From: Escherichia coli
GTDB lineage: Bacteria; Pseudomonadota; Gammaproteobacteria; Enterobacterales; Enterobacteriaceae
DNA: 443 nt
Reading direction: 5' to 3' (one strand)
NCBI RefSeq assembly: GCF_003334385.1
Contig: NZ_QOWN01000180.1
In this document: positions 1 through 443 of the stretch, in pieces
Layout: the number at the start of each line of letters is the position of its first letter
Numbering within the stretch: the stretch's first letter is position 1
The notes under the pieces: model-generated
The model's input: the letters and a program-made list of their open reading frames with translations, nothing else
Told to the model about the DNA's origin: nothing
The model's database searches: none
Position numbers and translations under genes: made by a program

Positions 1-245
1 ATGCCGCTACACTTTAGCCAGCCCATGTTTTCCACCGGGGAATGGGCTGACGGTATCCATAAAGTGACAAACCTTTTCAACAACTGCCACATTGAACGGC
101 ACGGGTGATTTCGGATTATTGTCTCATGAAGCGCCTGCCACAACCGTTCGACATGATTCACCCACGGCGAGTAAACTGGCTGATAAATCATCCTGAACTT
201 CGGATCAATATCCGGCACTTCATTCTCTGATATCTCCGACCCGCA
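1..245 (-). pseudogene. IS630/Tc1-mariner-like (DDE_3-type) transposase, 5'-truncated C-terminal remnant; open frame runs off the window at position 1
   Basis: Minus-strand translation from 245 down to 1 is open for about 81 codons: [81 protein letters not shown]. The motif YSP-x-V-N-H-V-E-x-x-W has the same spacing as the IS630-family YSPxLNPIExxW motif that carries the catalytic Glu, and is followed by the usual basic/hydrophobic tail. An in-frame TAA (plus-strand 246-248) lies only about 32 codons upstream of that Glu, so the rest of the catalytic domain is absent. First in-frame ATG is at 192-194 with no good Shine-Dalgarno. Family call is from memory of motifs, not a search. Confidence 0.5.
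19..49. repeat. Inverted repeat with 8-bp arms (cagcccat / atgggctg) and a 15-nt spacer
   Basis: Read directly: 19-26 cagcccat is the reverse complement of 42-49 atgggctg; spacer 27-41 is gttttccaccgggga. It lies inside the minus-strand transposase remnant. No U/T run follows on either strand, so it is not an intrinsic terminator. Confidence 0.25.
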
Positions 246-250
246 TTAAT

Positions 251-370
251 CTGAAAGAAATAGAAATTCACTGGTGTGAAGTGCTACGTCTGGCGACCTC
301 AATAAAACAGGGAACAGTGACAGCATCCCTGATGCTGAGAAAACTTGCCAATTACCCCAAACAAAAGTAA
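251..370 (+). pseudogene. Tn3-family transposase (TnpA) internal fragment, truncated at both ends
   Basis: Plus-strand frame (codons at 251, 254, ...) reads [39 protein letters not shown] then stop TAA at 368-370. This resembles the conserved C-terminal-region block of Tn3-family TnpA, recalled as roughly HWDD-LLRLA-S-K-GTV-AS-LL-KL-AYPRQNGLA. The frame is open back to 197 but has no start codon or ribosome-binding site, and it stops where intact TnpA would continue. No Tn3-type 38-bp terminal inverted repeat is present. Confidence 0.7.
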
Positions 371-391
371 GCGTACAGCCTGAACCGTCTG

Positions 392-404
392 GTCAGAATC
401 TGAC
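392..404. repeat. 13-bp perfect palindrome gtcaga-a-tctgac
   Basis: Read directly: 392-397 gtcaga is the reverse complement of 399-404 tctgac, around a single central A at 398. The loop is too short for a stable hairpin, so if functional it is more likely a dimeric protein-binding site. Function is unknown. Confidence 0.3.
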
Positions 405-443
405 GAATTAGACAAAGTGGTGTCCACCAAATAAGTAGTGGGA

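Follow-up and report, generated by a model that had tools for sequence, protein, structure and literature searches.

A one-base deletion in an IS630-family transposase remnant of Escherichia coli and the two reading frames at its 3′ end

The two reading frames found at the 3′ end of an IS630-like remnant in Escherichia coli very probably belong to a single transposase tail, which the loss of one A from a run of five has divided, in a fragment of the gene that was already dead. The window, that is, the whole 443-nt stretch of DNA analysed here, carries this remnant on its minus strand, and for positions 1-110 the initial annotation had offered two alternatives, an indel that had frameshifted the true C-terminus or a second frame open by coincidence. 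The first is borne out, as the window has a run of four T at 74-77 (T4; A4 on the gene strand), against five (T5; A5) in the relatives. The features concerned are the following.

1-203, minus strand: 3′ remnant of an IS630-family (ISSpu2-like) transposase gene, about codons 279-343 of 343 by alignment to the plasmid element L014
1-7, minus strand: inner part of the right terminal inverted repeat (innermost ~7 nt), the element ending 17 nt left of position 1
7-9, minus strand: native transposase stop TAG, where all relatives stop and where the PGAP pseudogene CDS of the plasmid copy L001 ends
10-73, minus strand: native C-terminal 21-22 codons, now out of frame (the second frame), (K)VCHFMDTVSPFPGGKHGLAKV, matching the C-terminus of the relatives
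19-49, no strand assigned: perfect 8-nt inverted repeat, arms 19-26 (CAGCCCAT) and 42-49 (ATGGGCTG), 15 nt apart, lying in the codons S-P-F…H-G-L
74-77, minus strand: frameshift site, a T4 run (gene-strand A4) in place of an ancestral run of five, at codons K321-K322
78-203, minus strand: native-frame part of the remnant (in the main frame), 42 protein letters plus (K), 51.3 bits against the full-length profile
204-366, plus strand: internal fragment of a Tn3-family transposase, 54 protein letters, NF033527 positions 778-828/954 at 55 bits, cut at 366/367
367-443, plus strand: apparent left end of an IS66-family element, starting GTAAGCGTACAGCC… (GTAAGCG…), with tnpA, tnpB and tnpC next in L005 and L002

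When both strands were translated, the main frame proved to be minus-strand frame 1, with 67 protein letters and the YSP…E…W motif, open to position 1 exactly as had been described. The second frame is minus-strand frame 3 and reads DNNPKSPVPFNVAVVEKVCHFMDTVSPFPGGKHGLAKV before its stop, with the tail …VVEKVCHFMDTVSPFPGGKHGLAKV; its TAG stop at plus-strand 7-9 and its upstream closure, a TGA at plus-strand 124-126, had also been reported correctly, and the ORF listing gives it as 7-102 on the minus strand. Neither the open second frame nor the inverted repeat, taken as a bare observation, rises above chance: among random frames of sequences with the window's length (443 nt) and composition, 81% have 38 or more codons open in a row. 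The openness of the second frame therefore carries no weight of its own, and it is homology that makes this frame meaningful.

Restoring one base joins the frames into …MWQLLKKVCHFMDTVSPFPGGKHGLAKV followed by the stop, and this joined ending is the C-terminus of 19 close relatives, of the 343-codon ISSpu2-like element and of 13 full-length IS630-family transposases. The close relatives, which carry PF13358 (DDE_3), all end in …LLKKVxHFMxTVSPFPGGKHGLAKV (19 of 19); the last 56 residues of one of these, P0002, are those of the repaired window, and the L001 copy has its ending, …RSMWQLLKKVRHFMDTVSPFPGGKHGLVKV and stop, in a single frame. Full-length transposases of 341-358 aa were recovered in a profile search of 1.84 billion representatives, their match to the profile reaching ~139/140 with few residues left, and the repaired window is collinear with the 13 full-length proteins through the conserved PFPG and almost to their ends, a few residues excepted. 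The unrepaired window does not encode such a C-terminus in a single frame; one base is needed at 74-77. The alignment of both frames to full-length members, which had been proposed as the decisive check, thus identifies the second frame as the family C-terminus, both by the PFPG motif and by the position of the stop.

The profile scores describe the same split. With NF033545 the joined protein scores 53.2 bits (250-298/299) and the main frame alone 43.2 bits (to 290/299), the cut-off of this profile being 100 bits, which a fragment as short as that in the window cannot pass alone. In an HMM of our own (346 positions), built from the 13 full-length transposases of 341-358 aa, the joined protein reaches 84.1 bits at positions 282-343, the main-frame read-through 52.3 bits at 282-327 and the part common to both frames 51.3 bits at 282-321. 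Taken by themselves, the second-frame tail scores 18.7 bits at positions 320-344, and the main-frame tail −2.7 bits with no meaningful positions. Past the run the continuation of the main frame, the shifted ending of which reads …KRFVTLWIPSAH…, has no match to homologs.

What is left of the gene was assessed against a nearly intact relative. L014 (positions 715-1872 of NZ_CP100878, an E. coli ET979 plasmid) is a 1158-bp element of the IS630/Tc1-mariner superfamily, within the ~1.1-1.2 kb that IS630-family insertion sequences span between their terminal inverted repeats; both of its inverted repeats, which are imperfect, begin CTAAATAACTG…, and PGAP names its product "IS630-like element ISSpu2 family transposase". 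Its single 343-codon ORF, ending …KKVHHFMDTVSPFPGGKHGLAKV (…MWHLLKKVHHFMDTVSPFPGGKHGLAKV) at the stop, has one internal stop, a TAG replacing CAG in …VIYQPVY…; once this codon is replaced, NF033545 matches the protein at 247 bits over profile positions 1-298/299, against the cut-off of 100, and the element is useful as a reference for all the remnants. Read from the sequence, window positions 1-203 hold only the region of the third catalytic residue (YSPWVNHVERLW), while the first D (FYEDEVDIHLNP) and the second D (LIVDNYIIHKS), present in L014, are gone from the window copy with its truncation at 203. The copy thus lacks the DDE catalytic triad, and it has neither the helix-turn-helix N-terminus nor a start codon. 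Judged by these features, it is a remnant of an IS630-family member and not a functional member. Its DNA (window 1-203) has 98% identity to IS630-family pseudogenes on ETEC plasmids.

The position of the missing base follows from pairwise alignment, in which the gene strand of L001 reads TTG AAA AAG GTT and that of the window TTG AAA AGG TT. A run of T5 stands at this site in L001, L003, L004, L009, L012, L013 and L014. All the outgroups have A5 (Pantoea L012 and L013, Edwardsiella L009 and the ISSpu2-like L014), and among 5,426 complete E. coli genomes T5 is common, occurring at 125 places in 82 records of 65 genomes, with no instance of T4; A4 is for these reasons the derived state, and the change a deletion. 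In this lineage the ancestral run of five A has lost one A to give A4, most likely through replication slippage, as the homopolymer context suggests. The deletion has split the transposase tail, leaving the native frame in the main frame upstream of the run and in the second frame downstream of it, as far as the TAG at 7-9, and the shifted main frame runs through the terminal inverted repeat and stops in flanking DNA.

The T4 allele is likewise absent from PLSDB plasmids and, by exact scan, from GTDB representative genomes. It does occur in metagenome contigs. An exact scan of metagenomes for the 203/204 junction returned four contigs, one of which (L007) stops short of the run; the other three, L005, L006 and L008, have T4, although OAWT and OAWU are possibly one study, so that the three need not be wholly independent of one another. 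Over 421 nt the sequences of L006 and L008 are identical to that of the window, and a single mismatch is seen in the 443 nt of L005. L006 (~4722-5240, minus strand) and L008 (minus strand) have, in addition, a longer IS630-like remnant with another flank, and this second remnant is also A4; L005 ends within it, before the run. The shared allele may mean either that the deletion is older than the duplication or that it spread by gene conversion. In an ENA contig, L004, the insertion site and the flank downstream are those of the window copy, but the run is A5 and the body is longer and untruncated; over the ~200 nt that it shares with the window, the sole differences are the extra base and a 2-nt GG/AT change. 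From this comparison, L004 looks like the ancestral state of the window locus.

These distributions also bear on the reading that the one-base difference is a homopolymer sequencing or assembly error and that the source DNA carries A5. The absence of A4 from the complete E. coli genomes, the PLSDB plasmids and the GTDB representatives would fit such an error, homopolymer runs being classic places for sequencing indels; yet a run of four to five bases is short for a systematic error, T4 recurs, within the same mosaic, in three metagenome contigs that were assembled separately, and on two of the three it is found again in the paralogous copy with its different flank. We consider an error very unlikely.

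Exceedingly unlikely, in our judgement, is programmed recoding, by which a ribosomal +1 frameshift or transcriptional slippage on the A run would give the full-length C-terminus. The shift does sit in an A run; efficient transcriptional slippage requires runs much longer than four A, and known IS recoding, to our knowledge, joins a DNA-binding orfA to a catalytic orfB and not the last 22 codons. The region is in a single frame in all relatives, including the 343-codon ISSpu2-like ORF and the 13 full-length transposases, so that no recoding signal is conserved here, and the analysis found no frame change that is conserved among the relatives and needed for a full-length protein. The remnant itself, truncated at 203, has neither N-terminus nor start. 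What speaks for recoding is that frameshifting does serve the decoding of some IS630-family elements (PMC5009743), as in a Roseiflexus IS630, which is decoded by transcriptional realignment (PMC5009743).

A natural two-ORF (orfA/orfB) organisation had been suspected because the first homolog search gave only proteins of at most 142 aa. It was rejected: the Edwardsiella and Pantoea loci are truncated remnants, and the full-length relatives are single-ORF.

Where the main frame stops was followed beyond the window edge. The boundary of the element lies between ...GCGGCAT and TAGGATCAGTTATTTAG. In seven insertion contexts the flanks diverge directly after …CAGTTATTTAG / TTATTTAG, a sequence that in L014 forms the outer end of the right inverted repeat; this places the end of the element 17 nt left of window position 1. 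The remainder of the right repeat, outside the window, is seen in L005, L006 and L008; the left end is missing from the window copy. A TA, as the family's target-site duplication would leave, follows the right end in L001, in L004 and in both the A and B copies of L006, and is not found there in L003, L009, L012, L013 and L014. In L005, L006 and L008 the main frame continues as …LKCSGIRISYLVLRLSLI to a stop 14 codons beyond the window, past the element boundary; from the run onwards it comprises 37 unrelated codons (RFVTLW…LRLSLI and stop). Extension past position 1, as the initial annotation had advised, thus takes the main frame across the terminal inverted repeat to a termination in flanking DNA, and the outcome that it had named as contrary to a frameshift, an early stop with a C-terminus aligning unshifted to intact homologs, is not what is seen: the frame ends 14 codons on, with a tail to which no homolog aligns.

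That the second frame is a coincidence, with the main frame giving the real C-terminus up to the window edge, has next to no probability: the recognisable YSP…E…W motif of the main frame and the ease with which 38 codons stay open by chance would allow it, but the second-frame tail, and not the main-frame tail, scores at the correct C-terminal positions of the HMM, all relatives end in the second-frame sequence with an identical stop position, and the main frame enters flanking DNA, which differs between insertion sites.

The inverted repeat at 19-49 had been noted as lying in the overlap of the two frames. Both arms were found, and their location there is a positional coincidence only. A perfect 8-nt inverted repeat with a loop of at most 30 nt occurs in ~14% of random 443-nt sequences of the window's composition; the RNA fold of the repeat is only modestly more stable than those of shuffled sequences (gene strand, z = -2.0; plus strand, z = -1.5), and its stem is broken, without compensation, by a synonymous CAT to CAC change in L014 and by two changes in the Edwardsiella L009. 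With a modest z, this chance rate and uncompensated substitutions in both relatives, a functional hairpin was rejected, and the repeat is most likely a by-product of the coding sequence.

An antisense ORF of 41 aa lies at 105-230 on the plus strand (33 protein letters…), and in L003, L006 and L012 it reaches 68 aa; this ORF is probably a mirror of the conserved coding region.

To the right of the remnant, the junction with the Tn3 fragment has a 3-nt overlap (CGG) at window 201-204. The same Tn3-fragment boundary is joined to unrelated DNA in pF8704-2_3 (L002 3001), which suggests that it is older than the join seen in the window. As regards the IS66-family element, the first annotated gene of its transposase operon begins at window-equivalent 459 in L002, and a 133-aa ORF at equivalent 459 in L005 matches IS66 TnpA. 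L001 has the same IS66 end joined to the IS630 remnant at another point, with an IS3-family element interrupting this end at equivalent 436/437. No complete E. coli genome or PLSDB plasmid was found to cover at least 80% of the window, and an exact scan of GTDB representative genomes found no 203/204 junction.

To the left of the window, a chaperone-usher fimbrial operon adjoins the IS remnant (L005 4440-8358 and L006 611-4529, both on the minus strand), with genes for a 199-aa FimG/StaE-like subunit, an 813-aa usher and a 247-aa LpfB-like chaperone. It has no megablast match in PLSDB or in the 5,426 complete E. coli genomes, where the flank matches are IS pieces only, and may represent a fimbrial locus not yet catalogued, on a virulence-type plasmid. 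One could imagine that the A4 shared by the two dead IS copies flanking this operon is the footprint of gene conversion between them, and that the copies have perhaps been recombination substrates mobilising the operon as a composite unit, an idea that we regard as doubtful.

In terms of annotation, positions 1-203 are to be described as one IS630-family pseudogene fragment, frameshifted and N-terminally truncated, with its native stop at 7-9, and not as two ORFs or as a long ORF running out of the element. Nothing functional is likely to depend on the shift, because the remnant keeps ~65 of 343 codons, with neither the DNA-binding domain nor more than one of the three catalytic residues. The one-base deletion serves as a lineage marker, linking the window to a few gut-metagenome contigs that carry the IS630Δ–Tn3Δ–IS66 mosaic beside the fimbrial operon.

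Compared with known systems, the remnant shares with the ISSpu2-like L014 the C-terminal peptide …KKVxHFMDTVSPFPGGKHGLAKV, the stop and the right terminal inverted repeat, identity being high across the shared 3′ end (91.8% DNA identity for L014 over the 85-nt match of a sister copy); unlike L014, it retains only the last ~65 of 343 codons, has a 1-nt deletion in A5 and is joined at 203/204 to a Tn3-family fragment. The pseudogenes of ETEC virulence plasmids (for example NZ_CP029980, locus B4O06_RS00825, and NZ_CP024227) are likewise N-terminally truncated remnants, which PGAP describes as "IS630 family transposase, incomplete" (for that of NZ_CP029980, L001, with the addition "missing N-terminus") and which stop at the equivalent of window 7-9; they differ from the window in having A5 and a single frame, other truncation points and other neighbouring IS elements. 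The event is one of ordinary gene decay, which has produced a frameshifted, truncated IS630-family pseudogene and involves no new mechanism. Programmed frameshifting or slippage, as in IS1, IS3, IS5 and some IS630 elements, also places a frame change at a homopolymer within a transposase gene (PMC5009743), whereas that in the window is lineage-specific and not conserved, lies 22 codons from the end and not at an orfA/orfB junction, and is found in a dead fragment; it is to be seen as a mutation rather than a mechanism.
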